A stretch of 64,000 nucleotides of DNA, from NCBI GenBank assembly GCA_965214245.1, contig CBDCBL010000009.1, forward strand, positions 210,214-274,213, given 5' to 3'. Positions within the stretch are counted from its first letter, which is position 1, and every line of letters begins with the position of its first letter. Source of the DNA: Acidobacteriota bacterium (GTDB taxonomy: Bacteria > Acidobacteriota > UBA890). The notes beneath the pieces were generated by a model. The model saw only the letters and a program-made list of their open reading frames with translations, made no database searches and was not told the DNA's origin. A program made the translations under genes and the position numbers. Shown piece after piece: positions 3,657 to 64,000 of the stretch.

Positions 3657-3673
3657 GGTGACGGGCGGAAGGC

Positions 3674-4087
3674 CTATTGCAGGTCGGTGCGGAACGTCTC
3701 CATCCTGATCTCGCGAGCCGGTCCCCAAATCGAGCTCTGCGTGCCGACTACCAGCGTCAGACTCTTGCGCGCCGCGTTGTCGTCGACAATTTGCCAGCGA
3801 ATGTATCGATCCGGGTCGCCGTTCCACGGATCAATCGAGTAGTTGGCATTCGATCCGACGATCGAGCCGCCGGCAGCGAGGTCGGCATGCGTGAAAGGCA
3901 AGGCGCGCATGATTTCCATTTGCTCGACGCCGGCTGCGGTCAGTTCTGTCATTTCCTGAGCCACCGCCGACGTCTGCACGGCCATCAGCATCATTGGCGC
4001 CACCGCCAACGAGATCAGGCCGACGAGGAACGTGGCCACCAGCACCTCGACGAGGGTGAAACCCGAAGCGTCTGTCTTTCGGATCAT
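3674..4087 (-). CDS. type IV pilin-like / pseudopilin (prepilin-type N-terminal cleavage-methylation domain)
   Basis: [31 protein letters not shown]: class III leader ending in Gly followed by F and hydrophobic helix with E5; ORF track 3674..4117, start taken at second Met. Confidence 0.6.
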
Positions 4088-4118
4088 GCGGGTGTTCCTT
4101 ACTGTGAACGATCCCAAC

Positions 4119-5933: not shown

Positions 5934-5934
5934 C

Positions 5935-6839: not shown

Positions 6840-6965
6840 CTTTGGAGCGCCCGTACGTGTTAATCATTAATAGACTCGAAAACATACTATAAGACATAAA
6901 ACTATTTATATCAGCGTGTATAAGTCCTTATAAGTTATAAAAACACAAAGTTGATCAGGCTTTCC
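6840..6965. promoter_or_regulatory. AT-rich (~30% GC) divergent promoter island between the minor-pilin operon (minus) and the Wzy_C gene (plus); three TATAAG direct repeats
   Basis: ttaatcattaatagactcgaaaacatactataagacataaaactatttatatcagcgtgtataagtccttataagttataaaaacacaaag stands out in a 68% GC background; TTGACA at 6967-6972. Confidence 0.4.
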
Positions 6966-7165
6966 TGCTTGCGCACTGTGAAGGGCGTTTGACAAACGAC
7001 CTTCAGCGCCCCTATCCACTAGACCACAAATTACCTGCCCCGCGAAACGCCGAAAGCACGTCTTTTCACGCAGCCCGGCCTTCTACCCAGGAGACTTCCG
7101 GTCGCCTTGGCCTGCCCCCACACAACGGCTATCGTTGCCCTGACCGGGAGGCTGTTTCCGTTGCC

Positions 7166-8449
7166 ATGAGTGCGTCCGTGCCGCGTTCCGTTACCGAGCA
7201 GTTGCTGTGGATTTCCGGCGGCATGGCGCTCATATGGACGCTCTCCATGCCGCTGTCGGTGGCCGTCGCCGAGGCGGCGCTGTGGCTATCGGCGGCGCTG
7301 TGGGCCGTCGCCTGGTTGCGGCGCGAGCTCGGGCCGAATGGCGCCGAACCGCCCGCCGCGCCGGGGCCGGCGGGTGACGCTCTGGGCCTGGTGGGCGCCC
7401 CCATCATCGTCTTCTTCGCCGTTTCCTTGCTCTCCGCGGCCCTGTCGCGCGACAGCGTGGCCAGTGTCCTGGAGCTGCGCGAGCTATTTTTGTTCGCGGC
7501 GCCGCTGGTGACCTGGGCGACGTTCCGCGACGCGGCGGCGCGAGACCGCGGGCGCCTCATGTTCGGCATCGGCATCTTCGCGTGCACCGCCATGGGCTTG
7601 GCGCAAACGTTCGTGCATTTCGGCGACGCGATGTTCCGGCCCACAGGATTCCTCGGCCACTGGATGACCTTCTCGGGAATGCTGTTGATCGGCGTACCCC
7701 TGCTCCTCACGATCCGCTGTGGCGCGCGGCGCTACGCCGCACAAGCCGCGGCGGTATTGGCTGTCGGGATGATCGCCCTCACCATGACCCGCAGCGCTTG
7801 GATCGGCTGTGCCGTTGCCCTGGTCGTCTTCTTTGCGAGCGGGCGAGTGCGCGGCCTGGAGCCCTCCGAAACGGCGCAACCGCCTCGTCTCCGCCCCGCC
7901 CTCTACGGCATGACGTTGCTCATCGGCATCATCATCGTGGCGTTGCTGGTGGGTGCGATTGCCGGGCCTGATGCTCTCTTCAATCGCGCTGCCAGCATCT
8001 TCTCGATGAACGCGCCAAGCAACGTCGATCGCCTGGCAATGGCGGCAACCGGTCTGCGGATCATCAGGGCCTACCCGTACTTCGGCATCGGACCGGGCCT
8101 GGTTGGCGAGGTGTACTCCGCGTGGGTCGTCGATTGGGGGGTACGTGACGACAATCCGCATCTGCACAACAACATCATCCAGATCGCCGCCGAGCGGGGG
8201 CTGGTGGGTCTGGCCGCCTGGCTGTGGATGATGGCGGCACTTCTGGTGGTCGCCTGGAGGGTGTTACGCGCCGTGGGTCCGGACGGCGAAGGAGGACCGG
8301 AAGCGCGAGCCGCTCTCGCAGCCCTGCTCGGCTTCCTGTCCATGGGGATGTTCGAGTACAACTTCAGCGATTCTGAAGTCCTGATGGCCCTCCTGTACGT
8401 CGCCTCGCTACCGTTGGCGGCTAGTGCGGGGATGGGGAGGAAGACGTAG
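7166..8449 (+). CDS. O-antigen ligase family (Wzy_C) polytopic membrane protein; candidate pilin O-oligosaccharyltransferase (PglL/PilO-like) or WaaL
   Basis: Roughly 10 predicted TM helices, MTRSAWIGCAVALVVFFA and a periplasmic loop typical of Wzy_C; ORF track starts at TTG 6989 but first ATG with membrane start is 7166; divergent from the pilin operon. Confidence 0.65.
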   Translation: MSASVPRSVTEQLLWISGGMALIWTLSMPLSVAVAEAALWLSAALWAVAWLRRELGPNGAEPPAAPGPAGDALGLVGAPIIVFFAVSLLSAALSRDSVASVLELRELFLFAAPLVTWATFRDAAARDRGRLMFGIGIFACTAMGLAQTFVHFGDAMFRPTGFLGHWMTFSGMLLIGVPLLLTIRCGARRYAAQAAAVLAVGMIALTMTRSAWIGCAVALVVFFASGRVRGLEPSETAQPPRLRPALYGMTLLIGIIIVALLVGAIAGPDALFNRAASIFSMNAPSNVDRLAMAATGLRIIRAYPYFGIGPGLVGEVYSAWVVDWGVRDDNPHLHNNIIQIAAERGLVGLAAWLWMMAALLVVAWRVLRAVGPDGEGGPEARAALAALLGFLSMGMFEYNFSDSEVLMALLYVASLPLAASAGMGRKT

Positions 8450-10279: not shown

Positions 10280-11284
10280 CTAGTCGGTGGCGGTTTCTGC
10301 CGCAAAGCGGTCGAGATCTTCACGCCGCCCCAACACCAGCAACGTCGAACCAGCTTCAATAGTTTCGTTCGGCGACGGGTTGAACGCAAGCGTGTCGTCG
10401 GGTTGCACGCGCCCCACGACCAGCAATCCGAAACGGCGCCGGATGTCGGTTGCGCCGAGTGTTCGACCGGCGAGTGATGAATCTTCGGCAACCCGCAGCT
10501 CCTGCAACTCGAGTTCTTCCATGGTGGCGTGCCCCGACACGATGTCGATGAACTCGACCACGGTCGGGTTCAACACGGAGTGCGCCATGCGGTGGCCACC
10601 GATGATGTTCGGCGAAACGACGCGATCGGCACCCGCCGCGTTAAGCCGCCGTTCCCCGTTGTCGCTGATCGAACGCGCCAGAACGAAAAGGTCCGAGCAC
10701 AGGTCTTTGCTCAGCAGTGTCACGTAGACGCTGTCGGCTTCGCTGGGCAGCGCCAAGATGAGCCCCTTGGCGCGTTCCAGCCCGACGGCAAGCAGTGTTT
10801 TCTCTTCGGTAGCATCGCCGCAAAAGTACAGGTAGCCGTCACCCTCGATCCGTTCGGTCATTCTTTCGTTCGAATCGACGACGACAAACGGCGCGTGCGC
10901 TTTGGCGAGATCCTGGCACACGACCCTACCGACGCGGCCGTAGCCGCAAACGATGTAGTGTTCGCTCAACCGCATGATGTCGCGTTCCATTCCCCGTTTT
11001 CCTACGATGTCGCGGAGCTCGCCTTCGAAAATGGCCCGGGTAACCCCGGCTACCAGCAGGGAGATCGCAGTCAAACCGAAGCCGATCAAGGCCACCGTGA
11101 TCACCTTGCCCGTGTCGGACAGCGGCTGCACCTCACGGAAACCGACGGTGCTCAACGTGATGACGACCATGTAGAAGCTGTCGATCAACCTCCAGCCTTC
11201 TACATAGTAGTAGGCGAGCGTCCCCCCGATTACCGTAAGGGCCAACATCGGTAGGGCCCAACGCAACAGTTTCGAGGTTCCCAT
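10280..11284 (-). CDS. ion channel with RCK domains (TrkA-N NAD-binding + TrkA-C); pore filter TVGFRE is not a canonical GYG
   Basis: Two TM helices + pore helix (VITLSTVGFREV), then Rossmann GxGxxG (IVCGYGRVGRVV) and TrkA-C. Confidence 0.7.
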   Translation of the reverse strand: MGTSKLLRWALPMLALTVIGGTLAYYYVEGWRLIDSFYMVVITLSTVGFREVQPLSDTGKVITVALIGFGLTAISLLVAGVTRAIFEGELRDIVGKRGMERDIMRLSEHYIVCGYGRVGRVVCQDLAKAHAPFVVVDSNERMTERIEGDGYLYFCGDATEEKTLLAVGLERAKGLILALPSEADSVYVTLLSKDLCSDLFVLARSISDNGERRLNAAGADRVVSPNIIGGHRMAHSVLNPTVVEFIDIVSGHATMEELELQELRVAEDSSLAGRTLGATDIRRRFGLLVVGRVQPDDTLAFNPSPNETIEAGSTLLVLGRREDLDRFAAETATD

Positions 11285-11286
11285 GC

Positions 11287-11772
11287 TCAGTCCGAGTCGG
11301 GCGCCTCGTGAATCGTCGAGAAGCTGAGGATCTCGTAGCTTTTCAGCCCGCGTGGGGTCTCGACCTCGACCTCGTCGCCCCCATGTTTGCCGATCAACGA
11401 ACGACCGATGGGCGACGAAACGGAGATCTTGCCGTTCGGTGGGTCGGATTCGTCCGGACTCACGAGCCGGTACGTCAGCTCGTTGTCGGTATCCAGATCG
11501 AGGAGTTCGACGAGGGACCAGAAGCCGATCGAGTCGCGCGGAATCATGCGCTCCTCGATGTTGGCGAGCGACTGTTTCTTTTCGTACAAGCGCGCCAGCT
11601 GCGCCTGTACGAGATCCTTGCGCGCTTTGGCGGCGTCGTACTCGGCGTTCTCGCTCAAGTCGCCATGCGCCGCCGCTTCGGCGAGCTGACGCGGCAGCTC
11701 GACCTTGAGCTCGCGTTCCAGCGGCCCGATCTTGTCGTCCATCTTCTTCAAGAGCTTTTCGCGAATGCCCAT
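11287..11772 (-). CDS. greA: transcription elongation factor GreA
   Basis: 161 aa MGIREKLLKKMDDKIGPLERELKVELPRQLAEAAAHGDLSENAEYDAAK...; the longer ORF-track ORF (11287..12399) is N-terminally extended into the upstream gene in another frame. Confidence 0.9.
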   Translation of the reverse strand: MGIREKLLKKMDDKIGPLERELKVELPRQLAEAAAHGDLSENAEYDAAKARKDLVQAQLARLYEKKQSLANIEERMIPRDSIGFWSLVELLDLDTDNELTYRLVSPDESDPPNGKISVSSPIGRSLIGKHGGDEVEVETPRGLKSYEILSFSTIHEAPDSD

Positions 11773-11812
11773 CAGCGGAGTGTAACGGTCGAGAATCGGG
11801 CTGCCAAACTTG

Positions 11813-12892
11813 CTAACGGCGCCGCACGCGGCCGAGGGCAGCTTGGGCGGCGAACATCCCGGGCTCGATGCGCAACGCCCGCTGGTAGGCGCGTTCTGCT
11901 TCACGCGGCCGGTCTTGATACTCCAGCGCCAGTCCCAGGTTGTACCAAGCTGCCGCGTCGTTGCCCCGCGCTTCGAGCACCCGACGAAACGCAGCTTCGG
12001 CGGCTGCGTAGCTCTGTTGCAACAACGCAATATTGCCGCGGGTGGCCCGCGCGTCGACGTCGTCGGGGTTGTTCTCCAGCAAGCCATCGAGAAGAGTCGT
12101 TGCTTCCTCGTAGCCGCCTTGATAGAGCAGCGTGCGGGCGAGGTTGTAGCGCGCGTAGTCGTACGCGGGGGCAAGCTCCAGGGCGTGGCGAAAGTGCGTC
12201 GCCGCCGTTTCGAGCTCGCCTTGGTTGAAAGCACGGATGCCGAGTGACGTCCAATACTGCTGGTCGTCTGGTCCCGGCGGGCCGATGCTGATGATCTCGG
12301 GACCGATCTCGACGCGTGGGTCTTCCCGCGACTCGTAGCTACCGGGCGCGGCGTTGAAGTAGTACGCAACCGGCTCCTCGAGCTCATCGCCCGGGGCAAC
12401 GCCGGCGAACACCTCCGTCATGTAAAGGACGTATGCGCCGGCGCGCGACAAGCCGATGCCGGCGTGGGTGAACTCCGGATTCATTCGATTGCGGCGGTGA
12501 CCGTCGCTGCGCATGAGCGCGGCGTGCAGGTGCTCGACGCTACGGTTGCGGGCCACGTTCTCGCCCAACAACGGCACGGTGGGGAACGAGATCCGCAAGC
12601 GGCGTTCGGACGACAGGTTGAATTCATAAGAATGGTGCGAGACACGCCCGATCTCGGACTGCTCCTGACTCTGCCGACGCGCCAGTCTGCTCAGCGACTC
12701 ACTCGGGCGGAGCACGGCAAGTCCGGCGGCGAGCCGCTCGCTGTTGAGCAGCTCGAGTGCCCGCATCTCGAGGTTCTCCAGTTCCGGGTCCGGAGCCTGC
12801 TGGGCGCCGGCCCCGCCGAACGAGGTGCTGGCAAGCACGAACGCCACGCCGATCAGCGGCCACCAGGGCACCGGCAGGCGTCTGACGCTCAT
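11813..12892 (-). CDS. secreted CAP/SCP/PR1-like domain protein fused to C-terminal TPR repeats
   Basis: Signal peptide, CAP motifs (GHYTQVVW-like region, HLHAALMRSDGHRRNRMNPEFTHAGIG), then 3-4 TPR repeats (WYNLGLALEYQDRPREAERAYQRALRIEP). Confidence 0.65.
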   Translation of the reverse strand: MSVRRLPVPWWPLIGVAFVLASTSFGGAGAQQAPDPELENLEMRALELLNSERLAAGLAVLRPSESLSRLARRQSQEQSEIGRVSHHSYEFNLSSERRLRISFPTVPLLGENVARNRSVEHLHAALMRSDGHRRNRMNPEFTHAGIGLSRAGAYVLYMTEVFAGVAPGDELEEPVAYYFNAAPGSYESREDPRVEIGPEIISIGPPGPDDQQYWTSLGIRAFNQGELETAATHFRHALELAPAYDYARYNLARTLLYQGGYEEATTLLDGLLENNPDDVDARATRGNIALLQQSYAAAEAAFRRVLEARGNDAAAWYNLGLALEYQDRPREAERAYQRALRIEPGMFAAQAALGRVRRR

Positions 12893-35299: not shown

Positions 35300-37942
35300 C
35301 TAATTTCCGGCGTCGGCTGCCATCGGCTCTTCTTCGGGCCGCGGCGCCGCGCTCTTTTTGAACACCAGGATGGAGTCCGACACGTCGACATCGGCCCAGA
35401 TGAGGTCGCCCTCCTGGAACTCATCGCTCAGGATTCCCTGGGCGAGGGGGTTCTCGAGCAGTTTCTGGATGACGCGCTTCAAGGGCCGGGCACCGTAGAC
35501 CGGATCGAACCCGCGATCGGCAACGAAACGTTGCGCCTCATCGGTCAGCTCCAGTCGCAAGTGGCGATCGGCCAGCCGCTGATTCAAGTCGGCGAGCTGG
35601 ATGTCAACGATCTCGATGATCTGCGCGGCGCTGAGCGGATGAAACAGGATCGTCTCGTCGATTCGATTGAGGAACTCCGGGCGAAACGTTGCGCGCAACT
35701 CCTCGAAAACACGCTCGCGCGTCTCGTCGAGGCCCAGATCGGCGAGCTCCTGTAGGTACTGGCTGCCGACGTTCGACGTCATGATGACCACCGTGTTGGA
35801 AAAGTCCACGGTGCGGCCCTTGCCGTCGGTCAAACGGCCGTCGTCGAGGATCTGCAAGAGAATGTTGAAGACATCAGGATGGGCTTTCTCGGTTTCGTCG
35901 AAGAGAATCACCGCATACGGCCGACGGCGGACGGCCTCCGTCAGGTAACCGCCCTCATCGTGTCCGACGTAGCCGGGTGGAGCCCCGATCAAGCGCGCCA
36001 CCGCGTGGCGTTCCATGTACTCGGTCATGTCGATGCGAATCAGCGCGTCGATGCTGTCGAAGAGGAACTCGGCCAACGCCTTGGCAAGCTCGGTCTTGCC
36101 GACTCCGGTCGGCCCCAAGAAAAAAAACGAGCCGTAGGGTTGGTTCGGCGCCTGCAGACCGGCACGGGCCCTGCGGATAGCGTTCGAGACCGCCTCGATC
36201 GCTTCATCCTGGCCGATGACCCGCGCGTGCAGCTGCTCCTCCATGCGCAGGAGCTTTTCGGTCTCGCGCTCCAGCAGGCGGGTTACGGGGATTGCGGTCC
36301 AGCCCGACACGACCGCGGCGATGTCGTCGGCATCCACCTCTTCCTTGAGCATGCCGTGCTCGTCGCCCTGCAGCTCCTCGAGCTGTTTTTTTGCGGTCTC
36401 CAACGCCTGCTGACGATCGAGAATCGTACCGTAGCGCAGCTCGGCGGCGCGCTCGAGATCACCTTCGCGCTCGGCCTTCTCGGCCTGGTTCTTGGCGTCC
36501 TCGATGTCACGTTTCAAGCCCCGGAGCGCCGCCACCTGATCCTTCTCGGCCTGCCAGCGAGTGTGTAGCTCGTCGTACGAGGCGTTCAGGGTGGCGAGAT
36601 CCTCCTCGATCTTGGCGAGACGGTCTTTGGAGTTCCGATCACGCTCCTTGGCCAACGCCTGGCGCTCGATCTCCAGCTGGCGGCGCCGGCGGCCGAGCTC
36701 GTCCAACTCGACCGGCAGGCTGTCGATCTCCATGCGCAGGTGCGCGGCGGCCTCGTCCACCAGGTCGATGGCCTTGTCGGGCATGAAGCGATCGGCGATG
36801 TACCGCTCCGCCAGATTGGCGGCGGCGACCAGCGCGCTGTCCTTGATGCGGACACCATGGTGTACCTCGTAGCGCTCCTTGAGCCCCCGTAGAATCGAGA
36901 TGGTCTCCTCGACAGACGGCTCGCCTACCATCACGGGCTGGAAACGGCGCTCGAGGGCGGGGTCCTTCTCGATGTACTTGCGAAACTCGTTCAGCGTCGT
37001 GGCGCCCACCGCATGCAGCTCGCCGCGGGCGAGCGGCGGCTTGAGCATGTTCGCCGCATCGACGGCGCCTTCGGCAGCGCCGGCGCCGACCACCGTGTGC
37101 AATTCATCGATGAACAGAATGACGTCGGTGTCCTCCTGGATCTCGCGTAGAAAAGCCTTCAATCGATCCTCGAACTCGCCGCGATACTTGGCGCCGGCGA
37201 GCATCGAGCCGATGTCCATACGCACGACACGTCGGTTCGCCAGGCTCGAGGGCACGTCGCCGTTGATGATGCGCTGCGCCAAGCCTTCTACAATGGCCGT
37301 CTTGCCGACGCCCGGCTCGCCGAGAAGCACCGGATTGTTCTTCGTACGCCGCGACAGCACTTGCACCACGCGACGGATCTCCTCGTCGCGTCCGATCACT
37401 GGATCCAGTTTGCCCCGGCGCGCCATCTCAGTCAGATCGACGCCGTACTGCTCGGTGGCGTTGTACTTGTCTTCCGGGTTGGGATCGGTCACACGCATGG
37501 TGCCGCGCACCTGTTTGAGGGCGGCGAACAGCGCGTCGCGCTCGATGCCGGCCTGCTGCAGAACGGTCGCCGCCGCGCCGTCAGCGGCCAGGAGACCGAG
37601 GAGGATGTGCTCGGTTGAGACGTATTTGTCATCGAGCTGATCAGCCTCGGCCTGTGCCGCGTCCAGCGCCACCTTGGCCTCGGCCTCCAGATAGAGCTCG
37701 AGCGCAGCGTCTCCCTCGACGGACGGCTTACGATCGATCTCGGCGCGCGCCGCGTTGGCGATCGCGTCGGGGTCACCTCCCAATCGTTCGATGATGTTGC
37801 GCACCACGCCTTCGCGCTGCTCGAGTAGGGCCAGCAACAGATGCGGCCCGTCCAGCCCCTGGTGTTGCTGCGACTGCGCCAGTTGCTGGGCCCGCTGAAC
37901 AGCCTCTTGTGCCTTCACAGTGAAACGGTCGAAACGAATCAT
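35300..37942 (-). CDS. clpB: chaperone ClpB
   Basis: 880 aa, two AAA+ modules ([15 protein letters not shown]; [15 protein letters not shown]) and coiled-coil M-domain. Confidence 0.95.
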
Positions 37943-38565
37943 GTCTTGTAGGTCCTTGTCCCATCATCCATCGAGCGCAACACCGCTACGACTCGCCCCA
38001 ACAGCTCGAACTCGTCGCGGTACACAGTAGCGTCGTCGACGCGGCGAACACCACGCCGCCCTGGGAGCATCTCGACCAGCGTGGTGCCGCGACCGATCTG
38101 GCCCACGGCGAGCTCACCGGCTGCCGGCTTGGTGCCGGACACCACGATCACGTAGTCGCCGCGCAGGATGCCGTGACGTTCCAGACCACTGAGATTGACG
38201 CGCACGGCAATGGCGCCGTGTCCGGCTAGCCGGCTGTCGAAGAGCAAGTGCCGGCGCTTGCGACCTTCCGCAGACAGCCGCTTGCGGGCCGGCAAAGTGC
38301 CGATCACCGGAACCCGCACAGCCGTATCTGAGGGGTTGTGCCGCTGGCTCAGATCCGTCAGCTCGATGCCTCGCGCCATTCCCGGCCGACGGCGTATGTA
38401 GCCCTTCCGCTCGATCGCCCGTAGGTGATCGGCTACCCCGGAGGCCGAGGCCAGCTCGAAGGCCTGGGCTATCTCGGTAAGGCTGGGGGGGATGCCGCGG
38501 CCGCGAACCCGCTCCACGATGAAGTCGTAGATCGCGCGCTGCCTCGATGTGAGAGAGGTCGTCAC
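37939..38565 (-). CDS. lexA: LexA-family repressor homolog; Ala-Gly scissile bond and catalytic Lys apparently not conserved
   Basis: GTG start at 38565 gives LTSRQRAIYDFIVERVRGRGIPPSLTEIAQAFELASASGVADHLRAIERKGYI (LexA wHTH); S24-like C-domain aligns GILRGDYVIV with LexA GILDKDYVIV; Ser retained (VNLSGL) but the TVKR Lys position reads TLVEML and the cleavage region VPVIGTLPARKRL lacks Ala-Gly. Confidence 0.75.
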   Translation of the reverse strand: MTTSLTSRQRAIYDFIVERVRGRGIPPSLTEIAQAFELASASGVADHLRAIERKGYIRRRPGMARGIELTDLSQRHNPSDTAVRVPVIGTLPARKRLSAEGRKRRHLLFDSRLAGHGAIAVRVNLSGLERHGILRGDYVIVVSGTKPAAGELAVGQIGRGTTLVEMLPGRRGVRRVDDATVYRDEFELLGRVVAVLRSMDDGTRTYKT

Positions 38566-49190: not shown

Positions 49191-50083
49191 TGCAGATATT
49201 TTGCCTGAGCCGTTTCCGCTTTGCGGCCTCGACCCTCGGCGTCGTGTGCCTATCGGCGATCGTGATGCTACCGCTCACCGCGCCGGCTAAGACGAGAGCC
49301 CCGCAGGAGTCGACGGCACTCGCCTACCCTGTCGACGTCATCGCCGACGGCGACGATCTCATCGTCGCCGACTTCAAGCGCTACGGATTGCTGCGCCTCG
49401 GACCGCAGGGCGTCGTACAGACGATACGTACCGGCGACGGTCTGCCGCGCACGCCCCTGTACGGCACACGCTCGGTGGTCGCGGCCCCAGACGGCAACGG
49501 CTGGCTGGTGGCCGATCCGGCGACCTTCGGCCTGTACCGGGTCGCTGCCGACACGACGCTGTCGACGATCACCACGGAGCTCGATATTCCTCAGGGTCTG
49601 GTGGCCTTCGATGAAGATTCCGTTCTGGTGTCCGACCTGCGCAGCGGCATCGGCGCCGTGATGCGCGTCACGCTCGACGGCATCGTCACGGTCTTTGCCG
49701 AGGTCGACAGCCCCAAGGGCATCGTCGCCGACGGTGAAGGCGGCTTTGTTGTCGTATCGCACGGCGCCCGTGCCCTCTTTCGACTTTCGCGCGACGGTAC
49801 GGTGGACACCCTGATCAGCGGAGCGCCGTTCGATTTCCCGCACGATCTCGTACGACTGGACGATGGCAACTTCGTGGTCACCGACGGCTACGCTGCGGCG
49901 CTGTTTCGGGTCTCTGCCGCCGGAGAGGTCAGCGTTCTGGCGCAGGGACCCCCACTAGTCAATCCGCAGGGCATCACCCGCGCCGCAGATGGCAACCTCG
50001 TCGTCACAGATCCGCAGGCCGGGTCCGTGTTCAGCGTCACGCTCGAAGGCACCGTGTCGACGCTGGCGCGAGCTAGCCGCTAG
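49190..50083 (+). CDS. secreted NHL/SMP-30-like beta-propeller repeat protein
   Basis: Signal peptide MQIFCLSRFRFAAS...; repeated ~40-aa units with V.DxxGNxxVxD pattern. Confidence 0.55.
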   Translation: MQIFCLSRFRFAASTLGVVCLSAIVMLPLTAPAKTRAPQESTALAYPVDVIADGDDLIVADFKRYGLLRLGPQGVVQTIRTGDGLPRTPLYGTRSVVAAPDGNGWLVADPATFGLYRVAADTTLSTITTELDIPQGLVAFDEDSVLVSDLRSGIGAVMRVTLDGIVTVFAEVDSPKGIVADGEGGFVVVSHGARALFRLSRDGTVDTLISGAPFDFPHDLVRLDDGNFVVTDGYAAALFRVSAAGEVSVLAQGPPLVNPQGITRAADGNLVVTDPQAGSVFSVTLEGTVSTLARASR

Positions 50084-50670
50084 TCTCCGGAAATTACGGC
50101 CCACAGCTCAGGGCGCTTCTCGCGCAACTCCTCGTCGGTCAGGCTCGCGAGCTCGTGCGGGAAGACGATCCAACGATTGTCGGCGATCGCGTAGTAATCG
50201 GGTTCGATATCCGTCTCGTTCTTGTCGGGCTTGTAGTAGACGGTGGCGACCTTGCACGTGGGAGTGTTGCGCCGCGCGCGACGACGAATGTCCTCGAGAA
50301 TTGCCACCATCGTGTGCCCGGTATCGAACACGTCGTCGACGAACAACAAGCTGTCCTCGGCGTTCACCACGTCGATCACGTGACCGAGACCTTTCACCTC
50401 GACCGCCGCGCCGAGACGCTGCGCGCCGCGGTACGACTGTGTCTTGATTGTCGTGTGATAAGGCTCGAGGCCGCACAGCCGAAAGAACTCGTGCATCGCC
50501 ACGCCCGGAGGCGTGCCACCGCGCCATATGCCGACTATGCAGTCGGGGCGAAAACCGTCATCCCAGATCTTGCGGGCCAGCACGACGGAATTCAGCAGTA
50601 GCGTTCGCGCATCGACGTAGAGCTTGCCGTCTGGCGAGGACATGGCGCCCGATTCTATCTCGGGCGCCAT
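50080..50670 (-). CDS. phosphoribosyltransferase (purine/xanthine-guanine PRT-like)
   Basis: PRPP-binding loop LLFVDDVFDTGHTM; the ORF-track ORF is N-extended, start taken at MAPEIESG (50670). Confidence 0.6.
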   Translation of the reverse strand: MAPEIESGAMSSPDGKLYVDARTLLLNSVVLARKIWDDGFRPDCIVGIWRGGTPPGVAMHEFFRLCGLEPYHTTIKTQSYRGAQRLGAAVEVKGLGHVIDVVNAEDSLLFVDDVFDTGHTMVAILEDIRRRARRNTPTCKVATVYYKPDKNETDIEPDYYAIADNRWIVFPHELASLTDEELREKRPELWAVISGD

Positions 50671-52076
50671 GCCGTAACGACAATACAGGTCACCGCCCCC
50701 GCCGCCGTACCGAACAAGAAGGGCCAGAAACTCGCCGTCACGGCGCCGCCGTGCCACACGATGGTACCGATCGCCATCAGCAGCGCCACGATCATCGACG
50801 CCAGCGTCGGCGTGCTCCCGACGCGCGGGGCGAACATGCCGGCGAACAGCGGCACCACCATGGCGATCACCAGGAGCCCGTAGAACACCCGCAAGTTGGC
50901 GATCACCGAAGGCACGCCGAGCGCCACGAACAGTCCCAGCGCTAATCCCACTACGGCGGCAACTCGGCCGGACAGGAGCAGCCCGCGATCGTCGACATCC
51001 GGACGCAGGTGCCCCTGATACAGGTCTCGGGAGAACGACGTCGACAACATGAAAAGCACCGCATCCGCGGAAGAGAGCTCCGCCGAGAGCAAGGCGGCCA
51101 GGGCCAGCAGGCCGATCCACGCCGGTGTCGCTTCCACGAGCAACAGGGGCAACGCCGTCTGGCTGCTGGCAGCTGACAGGTCCGGCCACTGGACCCGGGC
51201 CAACATGCCGAGCCCGGTCGGAACCACGGCGAACAAGAGCATCACGATCCCTGCGATCGCCACTCCGCACCGCACGGTGCTCGCATCACGGGCTCCGAAA
51301 GACTTCTGCAGGAGCCCCGGTGAGACGACAAAGGACGGCACGAGCACCAGGAACATGCCGAGCACTCCGGCGCCGCCGATGCCCACCGGCGACAGGTACG
51401 CATCCCCCATACCGCTGCTCGTGGCGGCGGCGCGGAGCGCCGTGCCGATGCCTCCGTCGCCGGCTATCGTGCGCGCCGCGAAAAGCAGGGCTAGCGGGAA
51501 CGCCACCAACTTCACCGCCAGCTCGGCGACATTGACGACGGAAGACGACCACAAGCCCCCGGCGCCGTAATACACGAGCACGATCAGCCCACCGATCACC
51601 GTCCCGTACGAGAGCGGGATTCCGGCAGCCACATTGAAGACGATCCCCATGGCAACGAGCTGGGCCGCAAGGATGGCCAACGTTCCGACCCACAGGATAG
51701 TCATCGAAAGCCCGCGCACACCACGGCCGAAGCGCGACTCGAGATAGTCGCCCACCGTGAAGCAATCGCGGGAGCGGGCCTCCTCCCAAAACAGTGGGCC
51801 GAACCAGAACGCGAGGATCAGCGTGCCGATGGCGGCAGAGCCAACCCACCACCATGCCGACGCGCCACTCGTGTACGCGAGCCAGGCAACACCGACGGTT
51901 GTGCCGGCGCCAATGTTGGCGGCGGTGACCGACGCCGCCAACATGCCCGGGCCGAGCCGGCGGCCGGCGACGTAGAAGTCGGCCGCCGTGCGCACCCGGC
52001 GTCCGGCCCAGACTCCGGCAAGCGCCAGAAAAACGCCGTACAGCAACAAGATTAGCAGCGCTGGTGTTCCTCTCAT
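50655..52076 (-). CDS. sodium:solute symporter family (SSF) transporter
   Basis: 473 aa, 13-14 TM helices, SSF-type N-terminal region. Confidence 0.75.
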   Translation of the reverse strand: MRGTPALLILLLYGVFLALAGVWAGRRVRTAADFYVAGRRLGPGMLAASVTAANIGAGTTVGVAWLAYTSGASAWWWVGSAAIGTLILAFWFGPLFWEEARSRDCFTVGDYLESRFGRGVRGLSMTILWVGTLAILAAQLVAMGIVFNVAAGIPLSYGTVIGGLIVLVYYGAGGLWSSSVVNVAELAVKLVAFPLALLFAARTIAGDGGIGTALRAAATSSGMGDAYLSPVGIGGAGVLGMFLVLVPSFVVSPGLLQKSFGARDASTVRCGVAIAGIVMLLFAVVPTGLGMLARVQWPDLSAASSQTALPLLLVEATPAWIGLLALAALLSAELSSADAVLFMLSTSFSRDLYQGHLRPDVDDRGLLLSGRVAAVVGLALGLFVALGVPSVIANLRVFYGLLVIAMVVPLFAGMFAPRVGSTPTLASMIVALLMAIGTIVWHGGAVTASFWPFLFGTAAGAVTCIVVTAWRPR

Positions 52077-57038: not shown

Positions 57039-57368
57039 ATGTTCGAGTTCTTGGGACTGATCGGTATCGTCTTCCTGTTCGGCGTCGTGGCGCTCGTCGG
57101 GTGGATCTTGCTGGTGCCCTTTTACCTATTGTTCCGCCTGTTCGGCTTCGCGCTGAAAGTCGGCTTCGCCGGCATCTTCATGGTGGTCGCCGGGCTGCTG
57201 CTGTTGCCAATCATGCTGCTATTCGGCGCCCTTCTGCTGCTCAAGCTTCTGATCATCGGCATCCCGCTGCTGATCGCGTTCGCGCTCTTCGGCTGGCTCA
57301 TCGGCTTCTTCTACAGTACCCCGGCATCGCACGCCACAATATCCGCCCAACCGATACCGCCAGTCTAG
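57039..57368 (+). CDS. small hydrophobic membrane protein (4 TM, 109 aa)
   Basis: Good SD (GGAGGGAAACGCTGATG); almost entirely hydrophobic; no family recognised. Confidence 0.4.
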   Translation: MFEFLGLIGIVFLFGVVALVGWILLVPFYLLFRLFGFALKVGFAGIFMVVAGLLLLPIMLLFGALLLLKLLIIGIPLLIAFALFGWLIGFFYSTPASHATISAQPIPPV

Positions 57369-58360
57369 CCCGAACTTCTCGACGCTCGCCGACCCAGATC
57401 GTGTAGCGCCCGCCGGACCTCGATGCGCACCATTTTCTTACGCCAGTGGTACATCAGGTCGACATTGTCGAGCGGCGTCGCCGCCTTGAACGCGGCAGCC
57501 GCGGCCGCCTCGATCGCGTCGTCGGTGAGCTCGCGACCCTGCAGCAACTCCGCCGCCGCATCGACTTCGACGGGATGCGTGTGCACTGCCCCCAACACGA
57601 GGCGGGCGTGCTCGACCGTCGCTCCTGAGAACCGGAGGCTCGCCGCAACGCCGAGGATCGGGAAATCGATGCTTCCCCGACGCCGGACCTTCCGGTACGT
57701 GCTGACGGCCCCGGCGGATCTGGGAATCAAGACCTTGGTGAGAATCTCGTCGGGCTGACGGGTCAGGTAATCGATGCCGTCGTCCCGGTACATCGCCCGC
57801 AGTGGAATATCGCGCTCGCCCGACGGGCCGGTCAAGACGACGCGCGCCCCCAGCGCCATCAAAGCCGGCGCCGCGTCCGTCGAGGACACCGCCCAGCATT
57901 TGGCGCTTCCCGGGGCAACCAGACAAATGTCGCCTTCCCGCTTCATGCAGAAACCGATGGACTCGCGCCACTCATGCGTCTGGTTGTAGTAGTTGCAGCG
58001 TGTATCGACGCACAGATTCCCGCCGAGCGTTCCCTGGCGCTGGATCTGCGGATTCGCGATCTGCCGGACGGCCTCGACCAATCCCGGCAGCTCGGCGGCG
58101 AGCGCCGCGTTGTCGGAGATTTCCTGCAGGCGCATGCCGCCACCTAGAACCACCTCCCCATTCATCGATGTGCCGCGTAGGTCCGCAAGGCTGCCGACGG
58201 ATACCAATACCTTGGCGTCGAACTGACGGCGCTTGAGGTTGGGAATCAGGTCGGTCCCGCCGGCGAGAACCATGGATTCGCCGAGGTGATCGGCGAGCAC
58301 CCGCGCGGCTTCCTGCACTGAGGTCGGACGAACGTAACGGAACGGAGGGAGTCGCAGCAT
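57365..58360 (-). CDS. hcrB: FAD-binding medium subunit with extra 4-Cys [4Fe-4S]-type insertion, 4-hydroxybenzoyl-CoA reductase HcrB-like
   Basis: MLRLPPFRYVRPTSVQEA...AGGTDLIPNLK FAD domain; insertion GGNLCVDTRCNYYNQTHEWRESIGFCMKREGDICLVAPGSAKCWA with Cys spacings 16/8/9; ATGA overlap with upstream large subunit. Confidence 0.75.
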   Translation of the reverse strand: MLRLPPFRYVRPTSVQEAARVLADHLGESMVLAGGTDLIPNLKRRQFDAKVLVSVGSLADLRGTSMNGEVVLGGGMRLQEISDNAALAAELPGLVEAVRQIANPQIQRQGTLGGNLCVDTRCNYYNQTHEWRESIGFCMKREGDICLVAPGSAKCWAVSSTDAAPALMALGARVVLTGPSGERDIPLRAMYRDDGIDYLTRQPDEILTKVLIPRSAGAVSTYRKVRRRGSIDFPILGVAASLRFSGATVEHARLVLGAVHTHPVEVDAAAELLQGRELTDDAIEAAAAAAFKAATPLDNVDLMYHWRKKMVRIEVRRALHDLGRRASRSSG

Positions 58361-60786
58361 CAGCTCGCCTCCACGCGGCTCGCCGGTCGTCGTCGCGTCT
58401 CGACCCACTGTTCGGGAGGTTTGTCGTACCAGACAGGGTCGACGACCACCGGCTCAGGCCAGTTGATGAGAGGGACGGAAGTGGGGCCGAAACGCGGCGT
58501 CTCTCCCTTTTCCTTGCGCTCCAGGGCGGCGCGGACCTTCTCCGGGGTGATCGGCAGCTCGTCGATACGCACCCCGACGGCGTCGAACACCGCGTTGGCG
58601 ACCGCCGGGGGCACGGGCAGCAACGGGCCCTGCCCTGCCTCCTTCGCCCCGAACGGGCCCTCCGCATCATCGGTCTCGACGAGAAACGTCTCTACCGGCG
58701 GCATCTCGAGGAACGTCGGGCTCTTGTAGTCGAGCATCGATGGACATTGGTGTTGGCCACTACGGAAGGCCTGCTCCTCCATGAAGATCTCGCCGAGCGC
58801 CATGTAGACGCTGCCTTCCACCTGTCCCTGAGCCAATGTTGGATTTATGGCACGGCCGATGTCGTGGGCGATCCAGATCTTCTCGGGGGTCACCACGCCG
58901 GTGTCCACGTCGACATCGACAAGAGCCACGGCGGCGGAATACGAGTACGCCGGCGTCGGCCCGACTCCCGAGCCCTTGAAAGGTCCACCGAGCTTCGCCG
59001 GTGTGTAGGAGCCCGTCGACGAGAGCTGGCCGAACTTGGCTTCGGCGAGCGGCGCAGCGTCGAGGAAGCTGATGCTGCGGCCTGATGGTGCGTGGCTGAT
59101 CCGGCCGTGCGCCGCGCTGAGGCCTTCGACATCGACCTCCAGCTCTTCGGCCGCCGCCGCGAAGATCTTGTCACGAATCTTCTCGGCCGCTTCGATCGCC
59201 GCGTTGCCCATCATGAAGGTCACGCGGCTCGCGTAGGAACCCAGGTCGATCGGCGTCGTGTCGGTGTCGGCGCAGGTCAGCTGCACATCGCTCGGCTCGA
59301 TGCCGAGCACCTCGGCGACGGTCATCGCCAGGACCGAATTGGACCCCTGGCCGATGTCGATCTGCATGCATTTCACCGCCACACCGCCTCCACGATCCAC
59401 CTTCAGGTCAACCGATGTGTGCGGCATCTTGTTCCAGTAGATCGGCAAGCCGGCACCGGAGAGATACGAGCCGACGCCGATGCCGATGCCCTTGCCCTCG
59501 GGCAGATTGCCGCGCAGCTCGCTGAAACGCGATGCCTCAGCCACCTTGTCGATGCATTCCTTGAGCCCGCACGAGGTCACCCGCATGTGGTTGGCGGTCA
59601 TCGAGTACTCGTCGACGCAGATACGCTTGCGGTAGTCAGCAGGGTCGAGCCCCAGCGCCTCAGCGACACGATCGAGGTGGATCTCCAGGGCATACCGTGG
59701 CTGTGGCGTGCCGTGACCCCGTTTCGGTCCGCACGGCGGCTTGTTGGTAAACACCCGGATGCCGCGAAATCGATAGGCAGGGATCTTGTAGGTCACCGTT
59801 TGCAGGGCGCCTGTGTAGTAGGTGCTGGCGACGCCGTAGCTGCCATAGCCGCCGCCGTCGAGAAACGACTGGAAATCGAGCGCCGTGATCGAACCGTCGC
59901 CCCTGACGCCCATTTTCACGTGCATGAGCACGGGATGGCGGCCGCGATGCGTGTAGAACACCTCTTCTCGGGTCAACGTGATCTTCACCGGGCGCCCGGT
60001 GATCATTGCCAGTTTGGCAGCGCAAAACTCGTGGGGAAACGGATCCGACTTGCCACCGAAGCCGCCGCCAACCGGCGTGGCGATTACCCGAATCCGGCTG
60101 GCCGGCATCTCGAGCACCCGCGCCATCGCCTTGTGGACGTAGTGCGGGGTTTGCGTCGATGACCACAATGTCAACTTGCCGCCGGCATCGTACGAGGCCA
60201 CCGCCGCATGCTGCTCCATCGCCAGGTGGTTGTTGCCGGAGTAGAAGTACGTCTCCTCGAAAACGTGGTCCGCGACGGCGAAACCGCTGTCGAGGTCGCC
60301 GAACTCCAGATTGACCTCCTTGTGCACGTTGCCGTGGGCGCCGTAGTCGTGGATTCGTTCGTCCTCGGCAACCGGTTGTAGGCCCTCCTCGATGTCGAAC
60401 GCGGTAGACAGGTCCTCGTACTCGACGTCGATGAGGCGAACGGCCGCCTCGGCGGTGAACTCGTCGACGGCGGCGAGGGCGACGATGGGGTCCCCGACGA
60501 AACGCACGCGGTCGATCTCCAGGGGGTACTCGTCTTCGCTGATCGGCAGTATTCCGTACTTCCCCGGCAGATCCCCGCCCGTGATAATCGCTTTCACTCC
60601 AGGCAGGGTCGCGGCCCTCGACGTATCGATGCTGACAATGCGGGCGTGCGGCCGCCGGCTGCCGAGCAGTTTGCCGTACAGCATACGGGGCAGGTACATG
60701 TCGTCGGCGTAGACCGTCTGGCCGCTCGCGTGGCGCAGCCCGTCGACCTTGGGGATGGGCTTGCCGACGACGCTGTAGTCGCTCAT
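58360..60786 (-). CDS. hcrA: molybdopterin-binding large subunit of xanthine-dehydrogenase-family enzyme, HcrA-like
   Basis: 808 aa, GGGFGGK, aldehyde-oxidase/XDH a/b hammerhead and Mo-binding domains. Confidence 0.8.
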   Translation of the reverse strand: MSDYSVVGKPIPKVDGLRHASGQTVYADDMYLPRMLYGKLLGSRRPHARIVSIDTSRAATLPGVKAIITGGDLPGKYGILPISEDEYPLEIDRVRFVGDPIVALAAVDEFTAEAAVRLIDVEYEDLSTAFDIEEGLQPVAEDERIHDYGAHGNVHKEVNLEFGDLDSGFAVADHVFEETYFYSGNNHLAMEQHAAVASYDAGGKLTLWSSTQTPHYVHKAMARVLEMPASRIRVIATPVGGGFGGKSDPFPHEFCAAKLAMITGRPVKITLTREEVFYTHRGRHPVLMHVKMGVRGDGSITALDFQSFLDGGGYGSYGVASTYYTGALQTVTYKIPAYRFRGIRVFTNKPPCGPKRGHGTPQPRYALEIHLDRVAEALGLDPADYRKRICVDEYSMTANHMRVTSCGLKECIDKVAEASRFSELRGNLPEGKGIGIGVGSYLSGAGLPIYWNKMPHTSVDLKVDRGGGVAVKCMQIDIGQGSNSVLAMTVAEVLGIEPSDVQLTCADTDTTPIDLGSYASRVTFMMGNAAIEAAEKIRDKIFAAAAEELEVDVEGLSAAHGRISHAPSGRSISFLDAAPLAEAKFGQLSSTGSYTPAKLGGPFKGSGVGPTPAYSYSAAVALVDVDVDTGVVTPEKIWIAHDIGRAINPTLAQGQVEGSVYMALGEIFMEEQAFRSGQHQCPSMLDYKSPTFLEMPPVETFLVETDDAEGPFGAKEAGQGPLLPVPPAVANAVFDAVGVRIDELPITPEKVRAALERKEKGETPRFGPTSVPLINWPEPVVVDPVWYDKPPEQWVETRRRPASRVEAS

Positions 60787-61376
60787 TCGGCACCGACCAG
60801 GGTGGGTTCGGACGTCCTGTCGCCTGATTCGGCTGTCGGCATGCGGTCCGTTTCGCGCGTGGTCATTACGCCGTCGTCCCCGGCCAACCGGCCGGCGGCG
60901 GTCTCGATGGCGTCAAGAATCTGCAAGTACCCGGTGCAGCGACACAGGTTGCCGGCCAGCTGTTCTTTGATTTGATTGCGGCTCGGCCGCGGTATTTCCT
61001 CGAGGAGCGCCTTCACCGACATCATGATCCCGGAAGTGCAGTAACCGCACTGCGAGGCACCGAGCTCGGCAAAGGCGATCTGCAGCTCGTGCGGCTTGCC
61101 GCCGGTCGCCAGCCCCTCGACGGTATCGATCTCCTGCCCGTCGGCTTCGACGGGAAGCACCAGACATGAAAGCTGCGGCGCGCCGCCGATCAGCACGGTA
61201 CAGGTACCGCACTCGCCGAGCTCGCACCCGTGTTTCGTACCGGTCAGCGCCAGGTCTTCGCGCAACACCTCGAGGAGGGTCTTGTTGACCGGCACGATCA
61301 GATCGTGCTCTTCGCCGTTGACGCGTAGCCGCACCCGCTCCGTGATCGTGGTGCTTGGCGGCGCCGACACGCTCAC
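60783..61376 (-). CDS. hcrC: (2Fe-2S)-binding small subunit, HcrC-like, with ~30-aa C-terminal extension
   Basis: GAGGAG SD 6 nt before GTG 61376; VNGEEHDLIVPVNKTLLEVLREDLALTGTKHGCELGECGTCTV...CGYCTSG...CRCTGY. Confidence 0.75.
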   Translation of the reverse strand: MSVSAPPSTTITERVRLRVNGEEHDLIVPVNKTLLEVLREDLALTGTKHGCELGECGTCTVLIGGAPQLSCLVLPVEADGQEIDTVEGLATGGKPHELQIAFAELGASQCGYCTSGIMMSVKALLEEIPRPSRNQIKEQLAGNLCRCTGYLQILDAIETAAGRLAGDDGVMTTRETDRMPTAESGDRTSEPTLVGAE

Positions 61377-61398
61377 GGTTCGCTCCTCGGCGTCCCGT

Positions 61399-62220
61399 TC
61401 ATGCGAGGCTTCCCGGCCGCGGCGCCACAACGGTCTGCCCGGCCGGCCGGGTGCTCTCGAAACCGAGGTCGTACGAAAGCGACTCCGCGGCGCCCCGCAC
61501 CGCTTCAGCGATGCGCCCAAGCTCGGGACGTTTGTAGGACGCCGCCAGCCCGATGAGACAGATACCACCGGCAACCTCTCCGTCGCGGCCGCGCACGGCA
61601 GCCCCAACGGCGACGATGCCGTCGATGTATTCCTCCTGGTCGAGCGCGTAGCCACGCTCGCGCACGCGGTGCAGGTCTTCTCGATAGTCGTCGGCGGAAC
61701 GCATGCTCTTGTCGGTAAACGTCGGCAGCGGGTGTTGCAGCAGCTCGTCCAGCTCGGCGGGGCTCAAGGCGGCGGCGAGAAGCTTGCCGAAAACGCCGGC
61801 ACGCAGATCGAGCCGATGGCCGATCGGCGCGCTGACATCGATAGGATCGGGGCTGTCAATCTTGGCCGCCAGGACCACGCCGTCGGGGCGGCGCAGACCC
61901 AAAAGCGCCGTCATGCGCGCCGCAGCAGACAGTTCCTCGAGGTACGGACCGGCAAGTTCCGGAAGATCCACGTAGCTGCGGCGGCGCGCGACGATTCGCG
62001 TCAGCCCCGGCCCCAGACGGTATCCCTGGGTGTCGGCGTCGCGCTCCAGCACGCCGTGGTGCACGAGGGTCGTGGCAATTTGATGGGCACTCGACTTGGG
62101 GATCTCGAGGTCTCGAGCCAGGTCCGAGATCCGTCGGCCGGCCTCGGAATCCTGCAGCGTCGCGAGCATACGCAGGGCGCGATCGACGGCGGGAACAAGC
62201 TGTGGTGCGGATCGGGGCAT
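61399..62220 (-). CDS. IclR-family transcriptional regulator
   Basis: N-terminal wHTH (ALRMLATLQDSEAGRRISDLARDLEIPKSSAHQIATTL) and C-terminal IclR effector domain. Confidence 0.8.
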   Translation of the reverse strand: MPRSAPQLVPAVDRALRMLATLQDSEAGRRISDLARDLEIPKSSAHQIATTLVHHGVLERDADTQGYRLGPGLTRIVARRRSYVDLPELAGPYLEELSAAARMTALLGLRRPDGVVLAAKIDSPDPIDVSAPIGHRLDLRAGVFGKLLAAALSPAELDELLQHPLPTFTDKSMRSADDYREDLHRVRERGYALDQEEYIDGIVAVGAAVRGRDGEVAGGICLIGLAASYKRPELGRIAEAVRGAAESLSYDLGFESTRPAGQTVVAPRPGSLA

Positions 62221-62255
62221 GTTCAGTATCCAGAACAGTGTTCAGTATACCGAAC
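62221..62255. promoter_or_regulatory. two adjacent GTTC-N8-GAAC palindromic operator-like sites immediately upstream of the iclR start codon
   Basis: GTTCAGTATCCAGAAC agt GTTCAGTATACCGAAC read directly. Confidence 0.45.
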
Positions 62256-62349
62256 GATAATGGAATGACAACCCCTTTTCCCCTACAGAAGGCGAGCCAT
62301 TTTCTGCGTGGGCGGCAGGAGATGACGGGCGCATCGGTCGGTTGACGCG

Positions 62350-63138
62350 CTAGCGACCGTCGAACTCGGGCCTGCGCTTGTCGAGGAACGCCCGGAGGCC
62401 CTCACGGAAATCGTCGCTCGCGAAGCATTCTTCCTGGGTCTCCGACTCGCGGGCGATGGCGGACTCGAGGGAGTCCTCGGCGCCGAGCCGGACGAGACGT
62501 TTGGCATGCGCGACGGCGTAGGAGGCGGCACCGAGTCGCGCAGTCTTTTCCTGTACGGCGCCGATGAAGTCGTCTGCGTCGACAATCTCGGTGATCAGTC
62601 CGGTGCGCAACGCTTCCTCTGCGTCGACGAGCTGACCGGTGAGCACCATCTCCATGGCCCGCCCGGCGCCGATCAAGCGGGGCAGCCAGAAGGTCGCACC
62701 TCAGTCGGGCACCAGGCCGAGCTTGATCCACGGGGCGGCGAAACGCACCCCCGGCGCCACAAAGCGAAGGTCGCAGGATAGTGCCAATGAGAGACCCGCA
62801 CCGGACGCCACACCGTTGACTGCCGCCACGGTCAGCCCGGGAAACGCTTGCAGCGCCAGCATCACCTCGGCACCGGCGTGCAGCAGCTTACGAAAACCGG
62901 CGTCATCACTCTCGCTGCGCAACGTGACCATGTTGTCGATGTCGCCGCCGGCACAAAAGGCCTTGCCTTCGCCGGTAACCACCACGGCGCGCACGCTGTC
63001 GTCTCCGGCCGCCGCAACGACATGCTGCAGGAGCTGCTCGCGCATGGTACCGGCCAATGCGTTGTACTTGTCGGGACGGTTGAGCGTGATCCACGCCACG
63101 GTGTCGCGAACGTCGTAGTCGACTCTGGGCTCACCCAT
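62350..63138 (-). pseudogene. enoyl-CoA hydratase/isomerase (crotonase) with an in-frame TGA (62701-62703) at a conserved position
   Basis: ORFs 62701..63138 and 62350..62676 are in the same frame: ...AAPWIKLGLVPD*GATFWLPRLIGAGRAMEMVLTG aligns with the crotonase consensus KLGLIPGxGGTQRLPRLVG...AMEMILTG. Confidence 0.7.
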
Positions 63139-63142
63139 AGCA

Positions 63143-63170
63143 GGCCGTGGTAAAAATGTGATGGGTTTGG
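63143..63170 (+). repeat. copy 3 of the dispersed ~30-nt motif
   Basis: GGCCGTGGTAAAAATGTGATGGGTTTGG between thiolase stop and crotonase start (its reverse complement abuts the crotonase ATG). Confidence 0.55.
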
Positions 63171-63180
63171 CGCGCCGGCA

Positions 63181-64000
63181 TCATGGATCCCGCTCGACGA
63201 GTAACGAAGTACCCATTCCCCCGGATACGCACAGAGTTGCAACCCCGCGGGCGGCACTCCTGCGTTCCATCTCGTGCAGCAGCGTAACCACGATCCGGGT
63301 CCCGGTGCAGCCGATCGGATGCCCCAAGGCGATGGCGCCGCCGTTGACGTTGAGCTTGTCGCGATCGAGGTGAAGGTCGCGATCGACGGCAATCACCTGG
63401 GCCGCGAAGGCCTCGTTGAGCTCGATCAGGTCGATGTCGGCAAGGTCGATATCGAGCCCTGACATCAACTGCCGCATCGCCGGCACGGGTCCGATTCCCA
63501 TGATCGCGGGATCGACACCGGCCTGAGTAGCGGCAACGACTCGCGCCATCGGCGTAACGTCGAGCCGCTCGGCTGCCTCCTCGGACAACACAATGAGCGC
63601 CGCCCCACCATCGGTGACGCCGCTGCTGTTGCCCGGGTGCACCGTGCCCCCATCCTTGAAGACGGCGCGAAGCCTGGCGAGCTGTTCCATGGTCACATCG
63701 TCACGCGGGTGCTCGTCGGTGGCGATGACCTGCGAATCGCCTTTGCGCTGCGGCACGTCAACAGGGACGATCTCGGCTTCAAACACCCTGCCGGCGCGGG
63801 CCGCTTGGGCTCGTTGCTGCGTCTCCACGGCGTAGGCGTCCTGTTCCTCGCGGCTGATGTCGTATCGCTCCGCCAGCCGCTCCGCCGTACGGCCCATCAA
63901 GTCGCCGCATAGAGGGCACAGAAAGCCGTCGCGATACTGGCCATCGACCAGCTGATCGTGGCCTAACCGGTATCCCCAGCGCGCCCCGGTGAGCAGGTAG
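63181..64000 (-). CDS. acetyl-CoA C-acyltransferase (thiolase), C-terminal ~270 aa; N-terminus beyond window end
   Basis: ...[25 protein letters not shown]..., [33 protein letters not shown] catalytic motifs; frame stays open to position 64000. Confidence 0.85.

Follow-up and report, generated by a model that had tools for sequence, protein, structure and literature searches.

A private in-frame TGA at an invariant tryptophan codon of an otherwise intact crotonase-family gene

Introduction

What does a TGA codon mean when it lies inside an otherwise intact bacterial enzyme gene? The question is raised by a crotonase-family gene in a 64-kb stretch of DNA from an Acidobacteriota bacterium. We refer to the whole stretch as the window. 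Two minus-strand open reading frames in the window are separated by a TGA codon. An earlier note on this DNA had proposed that they are one frame interrupted by a nonsense allele, a sequencing error or local read-through, with no global recoding. Our analysis supports this short list and reduces it to a fresh allele or a base-call error. The explanation that we favor, with moderate confidence, is a real loss-of-function allele that arose very recently and is private to this strain: a nascent pseudogene in an uncultured bacterium.

The organism has only remote named kin. Its GlnA protein finds named relatives only at 64-71% identity, among Acidobacteriota and Gemmatimonadota MAGs, and a scan of GTDB representative genomes for relatives returned distant matches only (36-45% identity).

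Results

One crotonase-family frame with a single internal stop

The minus strand of positions 62350..63138 translates as one 262-codon frame that ends in TAG and holds a single internal stop, TGA at 62701-62703 (TCA on the plus strand). This TGA is codon 146 of the crotonase-family gene. The two open reading frames listed for the region, 62701..63138 (145 aa) and 62350..62676 (108 aa, from an internal TTG), lie in this common frame with no further stop between them, just as had been proposed. Only codon 146 is damaged. There is no frameshift and no second stop, and the derived base is an A at 62701 on the minus strand. The predicted truncated product (62701..63138, minus strand) would have 145 residues, end at Asp145 and lack the C-terminal 117 residues; its exact sequence (P0121) is present in a public protein collection, on a 1,356,750-bp contig from which the window presumably comes. 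The in-frame remainder, codons 147-262 (62350..62700, minus strand), still resembles coding sequence, with a coding score of +37.5 in frame against -61 and -56 in the other two frames, and it carries zero window-specific substitutions.

When the two parts are joined with X at the stop, the product matches the Pfam family ECH_1 from end to end (residues 12-261 on profile positions 4-250 of 251, E = 8e-58). The score of 196.2 bits, against a gathering cutoff of 27, places it in the crotonase superfamily. Together with the uninterrupted 262-codon frame, this match bears out the view that the TGA sits inside an otherwise intact crotonase. Among solved structures, about 230 crotonase-family chains match the joined product, with 2EJ5 in first place (E = 4e-55). 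This structure, named 'enoyl-CoA hydratase subunit II' and assigned to the crotonase superfamily (PF00378), shares with our product the conserved Asp in the GLVPD motif. The solved homologues differ at the next residue, where they have Ala or Tyr and the subfamily studied here has an invariant Trp.

The canonical hydratase has two catalytic glutamates, Glu144 and Glu164 in rat ECH. In alignments to the true hydratases 5ZAI and 9QWV, these glutamates are replaced in our product by S117 and W137. Across 122 homologues, position 117 is S, A, N or G and position 137 is W or F. Judged by its sequence, the protein is a crotonase superfamily member and not a canonical hydratase. The closest named NCBIfam equivalog is PaaG (TIGR02280), at 181.5 bits against a cutoff of 345.15, and the product reaches none of the NCBIfam equivalog cutoffs. 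In JGI annotation, several homologues are called a PaaG-type isomerase. Unlike PaaG, the 2-(1,2-epoxy-1,2-dihydrophenyl)acetyl-CoA isomerase, our crotonase falls below the family cutoff and does not lie in a paa (phenylacetate) cluster.

The ancestral codon is TGG and the stop is private

We searched a collection of 5.8 billion protein clusters and obtained 2,774 matches at E <= 1e-30. When the query is aligned with 122 homologues (42-98% identity), all 122 have Trp in the stop column. Asp145, immediately before it, is invariant too, and the local motif among homologues reads VPDWGA[ST]FWLP. One homologue (P0001) is intact, has 262 aa and is 98% identical to the joined product. The residue at the stop had been described as variable (commonly Ala, Gly, Phe or Trp), which does not hold for this subfamily. 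Nor is the segment the oxyanion-hole region for which it had been taken. The backbone amides of the crotonase oxyanion hole lie upstream, in the FCAGGD and GxGAG motifs, and the VPDW segment is the loop after the position of the second hydratase glutamate.

The DNA of relatives agrees with the proteins. Codon 146 is TGG in all four related contigs compared: L001 (98.9% identical to the window), L007 (99.75-99.92%), L008 (about 97%) and L002 (85-92%). In the JGI metagenomes, a degenerate pattern for PD-TGG-GA[ST]FWLP found 20 contigs, and the corresponding pattern with TGA, PD-TGA-GA[ST]FWLP, found 0 relatives. The comparison of orthologues that had been suggested thus gives Trp throughout, encoded by TGG. 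It had also been noted that the stop is one step from TGG (Trp) or GGA (Gly); the first of these origins stands and the second falls. A stop therefore occupies a conserved sense codon, as in a nonsense pseudogene. Because all four contigs have TGG, including one that is 99.9% identical, the stop is private to the window. Read from these alignments, the change is a private TGG>TGA, a single G>A transition at the invariant Trp146.

UGA is a working terminator in the window

We examined how genes in the window end. A crude codon-usage map holds 57 ORFs, of which 28 stop at TGA, 23 at TAG and 5 at TAA, with 1 running off the window edge. Even without the crotonase N-terminal fragment there are 27 TGA stops. 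TGA is the commonest stop, and several of these codons lie in ATGA overlaps. Two TGA-ended genes, those for an IclR-family regulator (273 aa) and a Mo subunit (808 aa), have identical lengths in relatives. Other genes in the window thus truly end in TGA, as had been assumed. In the crude ORF map, in-frame coding potential continues past a TGA at two stops only, codon 146 of the crotonase gene and the stop of the thiolase gene. The thiolase TGA was rejected as a read-through candidate, since the next gene merely shares its frame. Because TGA is the commonest stop and only the TGA at codon 146 has coding sequence of the same gene beyond it, global recoding can be considered excluded.

A selenocysteine codon, or a reassigned code in which UGA is sense (table 4 or 25), would explain a bare in-frame UGA within a conserved enzyme, and it explains nothing else here. 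The homologues have Trp and never Cys or Sec (122 of 122). A 96-nt RNA starting 12 nt before the stop folds no better than shuffled sequences (z = +0.87; 160 of 200 shuffles fold at least as well). Rfam gave nothing at gathering thresholds over the whole window and nothing at E <= 1 locally, SECIS elements included. By eye, no Sec-insertion stem-loop had been obvious downstream, and the fold and the Rfam search agree with that impression. ARAGORN found no tRNA genes in the 64-kb window, so no suppressor or Sec tRNA is encoded there. Neither mark of a selenoprotein gene, a SECIS 3' of the UGA or Cys/Sec in relatives, is therefore present. As for tables 4 and 25, UGA serves as a terminator and one gene only has an in-frame TGA; the thiolase, IclR, Fer2 and Mo-subunit genes all end in TGA at positions conserved in relatives, and the G+C content is 64.5%. 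These data make selenocysteine or a reassigned code vanishingly unlikely.

Could ribosomes usefully read UGA146 as Trp, so that the cell has the enzyme at reduced dosage? The decoder would be the near-cognate tRNA-Trp(CCA) or a tRNA-Trp with a 4-bp anticodon stem. Near-cognate suppression at UGA inserts Trp, which is the ancestral residue at this position (PMC10570021). tRNA-Trp species with 4-bp anticodon stems, recently described in diverse bacteria, promote UGA read-through in E. coli (PMC13092985). The base at +4, after the TGA, is G; it is U at +4 that is reported to lower read-through (PMC5289835). Against these points, the TGA is conserved in no relative (metagenomes 0 TGA against 20 TGG, W in 122 of 122), no other gene in the 64 kb continues coding past an in-frame TGA, TGA ends 28 of the 57 mapped ORFs with gene lengths conserved in relatives, and no stimulatory structure lies downstream. 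We consider useful read-through or ambiguous decoding very unlikely. In its programmed form, in which the stop and its context would be conserved, read-through is unsupported as far as these sequences go: the metagenomes and the close relatives have TGG.

A broader version of the idea is that TGG>TGA changes at Trp codons are nearly neutral in this organism and that the locus shows UGA ambiguity at an early stage in a free-living lineage of high G+C. There is one private TGA and no second case among the 57 mapped ORFs, which speaks against such ambiguity, and we hold this to be highly improbable.

The two parts might instead be translated separately, the 145-aa N-terminal fragment joining a re-initiated 108-aa C-terminal fragment (from the TTG at 62676) in an active two-piece enzyme. 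The in-frame TTG does lie 8 codons past the stop, and a GAGG overlaps the stop codon. About 20 nt separate the GAGG from the TTG, more than a Shine-Dalgarno-driven start allows, and the C-terminal fragment would lack residues 146-153, which include the conserved WGA[ST]FWLP. No relative is split; all have single proteins of 262-264 aa. We give a split gene almost no credence.

The change is very recent

To place the stop in time, differences between the window and its near-twin L007 were polarised against L008, L002 and L001 over their shared length of 10.4 kb. The window lineage carries 4 private substitutions and no indel over those 10.4 kb. Two are in the crotonase gene, on the minus strand: the nonsense change at 62701 and a synonymous GGC>GGT at Gly109 (62812), which is the only other window-specific change in the gene. 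The others are P42L in the FAD subunit (58284) and L157M in an unnamed protein (54285), polarised in the same way. The one at 54285 is a G:C>T:A transversion, and the other three are G:C>A:T transitions.

Codon 42 of the FAD subunit shows an odd coincidence. At 58283-58284 an ancestral CC became TC in the window (P42L) and CT in L007 (synonymous). These are adjacent and independent changes, and the window and L007 differ at only about 10 sites in 10 kb.

Compared with L008, L002 and L029, dN/dS is 0.05-0.16 on either side of the stop, and 0.11-0.16 in codons 147-262. The 351 bp downstream of the stop hold no private change. The relaxed constraint and secondary lesions expected of a decaying pseudogene are thus absent past the stop. 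Low dN/dS on both sides and the lack of private change downstream indicate that purifying selection acted over the whole gene until very recently, and hence that the event itself is very recent. Either the event is too recent for decay to have begun, or the stop is an artefact. It had been suggested that close relatives might carry the same stop with degraded flanks, the mark of a fixed pseudogene. We see the opposite: relatives are intact at codon 146 and the flanks are not degraded. On these grounds an old fixed pseudogene is excluded.

Synonymous divergence between the window and L002 (10001-10789) is uneven along the gene, with a dS of 0.23 over codons 1-145 and of 1.27 over codons 147-262. 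Comparison with L029 gives the same rise, as does L008 against L002. It may reflect an old recombination breakpoint near the middle of the crotonase gene.

Is the base real?

The main competitor of a real allele is that the organism's DNA reads TGG, that the gene is intact, and that the A at 62701 is an artefact of base calling, of polishing or of mixed strains in what was probably a long-read metagenome assembly. We regard this as a possible but less probable account. Only one assembly has the allele; every relative, even the contig that is 99.9% identical, reads TGG. The TGA allele occurs only in this genome's own records. A count of '2 contigs' for the 145-aa product was dropped as independent support, as other window-specific proteins have the same count. 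An error would also leave the rest of the gene as we find it, with no other decay and low dN/dS on both sides.

The assembly has at least one suspicious site elsewhere. An acylphosphatase gene (about 3370-3660, minus strand) is thrown out of frame at a G8/C8 homopolymer (3461-3468), and adding one C to the run restores a 94-aa product. The restored protein matches Pfam Acylphosphatase over positions 2-84 of 85 with 88 bits; as it stands, the match covers 2-65 with 69.9 bits. Such a homopolymer frameshift is typically the classic signature of a long-read consensus error. Sibling contigs at 3x-7x coverage likewise show homopolymer frameshifts and fused or split genes. Their names, which give 3x-7x coverage, resemble the format of a long-read metagenome assembler ('ctgN_Cx_l'). 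Confusion between the purines A and G is the commonest nanopore substitution error (PMC11610573).

Other features of the data favor a real base. All 4 private differences are substitutions and none is an indel, whereas long-read consensus errors are mostly indels. Methylation-induced nanopore errors have been reported in RA/TY context (PMC11610573); none of the 4 substitutions lies in that context, and no shared error motif was seen among them. The 1.36-Mb length of the contig suggests reasonable coverage. This all-substitution pattern looks like strain divergence, which it fits better than long-read error. A random substitution creates a stop in only a few percent of cases, and nonsense alleles are common in bacterial genomes. 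Finally, the same gene cluster is truly disrupted by an IS in a sibling genome, as described below.

The low-coverage relatives have several broken genes of their own. In L007, opposite window position 55409, an extra C in a C5 run breaks an SDR gene, and at 6959-8433 an aldehyde dehydrogenase is split into 251 + 164 aa. L008 has a single fused ORF of 1005 aa (3382-6399) in place of separate Fer2 and Mo genes. The crotonase C terminus of protein P0035 is frameshifted. These four cases are probably assembly errors or pseudogenes.

We also asked whether other genes in the window are broken. Overlapping ORFs at 11287-12892 (GreA beside a TPR/CAP protein) and at 50080-52076 (a phosphoribosyltransferase beside an SSF transporter) proved to be separate genes. 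Same-frame ORFs split by a TAG at 19957 (an HNH endonuclease beside an Rrf2 regulator) and by a TAG at 3327 (an acylphosphatase beside SppA) are likewise distinct genes.

A further ORF in the window resembles LexA (208 aa, 37939-38565, minus strand). It has a clear LexA DNA-binding domain and no Peptidase_S24 match at E <= 0.01. On visual inspection the motif of the catalytic Ser seems to be replaced, and the ORF has an ATGA overlap with a downstream 880-aa gene. It may encode a non-cleavable LexA paralogue.

The crotonase gene lies in a conserved cluster that is also damaged in a sibling

The gene belongs to an eight-gene cluster in the order ECH (257 aa), aldehyde dehydrogenase, thiolase, the Asp/Trp crotonase, IclR, Fer2, Mo and FAD subunits. 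At least 10 metagenome loci and one 4.39-Mb contig keep this arrangement, in which the ECH is a second crotonase. In the window the cluster occupies 57365-64000, and it was also seen in L002, L008, L010, L017, L020, L026, L028 and L029. Upstream of the crotonase is the 3' part of the thiolase gene (63181..64000, minus strand), whose TGA stop lies 42 nt ahead of the crotonase ATG; the thiolase-crotonase order is kept in related loci. Downstream is the gene for the IclR-family regulator (61399..62220, minus strand; 273 aa, ending in TGA). It is followed by HcrCAB-like molybdenum hydroxylase genes (57365..61430), assigned by NCBIfam matches and synteny. The best NCBIfam models for the Mo and FAD subunits are the alpha and beta subunits of 4-hydroxybenzoyl-CoA reductase, and the gamma model ranks third for Fer2; all of these matches are below cutoff.

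Directly upstream of the IclR ATG (62220), the minus strand carries two tandem 16-bp near-palindromes, GTTCGGTATACTGAAC and GTTCTGGATACTGAAC, at 62221-62255, with starts 19 bp apart. They occur nowhere else in the window, where 0.01 would be expected by chance. In 10 related loci they are kept upstream of iclR though the remaining spacer diverges, and they overlap a sigma-70-like promoter match at 62271-62244. The pair is probably the IclR operator.

In L007, an IS3-type element (HTH_Tnp_1 and rve ORFs) at 10740-12010 replaces 2.6 kb of the window sequence (59816-62398). The loss covers the 3' end of the crotonase gene, IclR, the Fer2 subunit and the N terminus of the Mo subunit. The L007 crotonase (P0123) runs into the IS, and its C terminus is altered. 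The IS-linked deletion is an independent lesion of the same cluster, and it is certainly physical. This lesion indicates that loss of the cluster is tolerated in this population, where the eight-gene catabolic cluster appears dispensable.

Discussion

We infer that the base at 62701 is real rather than a consensus error, and that the gene has lost its function. On this favored explanation of a recent nonsense allele, a single G>A transition would have turned the TGG codon of Trp146 into TGA. Ribosomes would terminate after Asp145 and release a 145-residue fragment. In the crotonase fold, the C terminus completes the spiral core and supplies the helical domain, which forms the trimer and closes the acyl-CoA pocket as a lid. 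Since the end of the core and the trimerisation/lid domain would be missing, loss of the C-terminal 117 residues would leave the enzyme effectively null. At most a small fraction of ribosomes may insert Trp at the UGA through near-cognate tRNA-Trp and restore the wild-type protein. Such insertion would be background leakiness, incidental and not programmed. In E. coli, UGA read-through is governed by competition between Trp-tRNA-Trp and RF2 (PMC10570021).

Several practical points follow for annotation. The two ORFs should be treated as one interrupted crotonase gene and not as two small proteins, and public protein collections already list the 145-aa fragment as a protein in its own right. 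For quality control, the stop and the homopolymer frameshift at 3461-3468 flag the assembly for checking at the level of reads. If the stop is real, it and the IS-linked deletion in L007 would mean that this population is in the course of losing a widely conserved eight-gene cluster. In itself the locus carries little weight: a single copy of an accessory enzyme gene has been broken, or its sequence mis-called.

How does the locus compare with known systems? It resembles bacterial selenoprotein genes, in which UGA is followed by a SECIS hairpin, in having an in-frame UGA within an enzyme gene. It differs from them in that the crotonase gene has no hairpin, the homologues have Trp and the position is not a redox-active site. 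With UGA read-through systems it shares the stop UGA and the ancestral residue Trp, so that a leak rebuilds the wild-type protein. In contrast to those systems, the stop is unconserved here, there is no stimulatory context or structure, and other genes in the window give no sign of UGA ambiguity.

The closest parallel is with bacterial nonsense pseudogenes and segregating loss-of-function alleles. Unlike such pseudogenes, the crotonase gene has no secondary lesions yet, so the allele is either extremely young or not real. The likenesses are that one transition makes a stop of a conserved sense codon, that the orthologues of close relatives are intact, and that the gene belongs to an accessory catabolic cluster which is also IS-damaged in a sibling genome. 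A private nonsense change of this sort is an ordinary kind of event.
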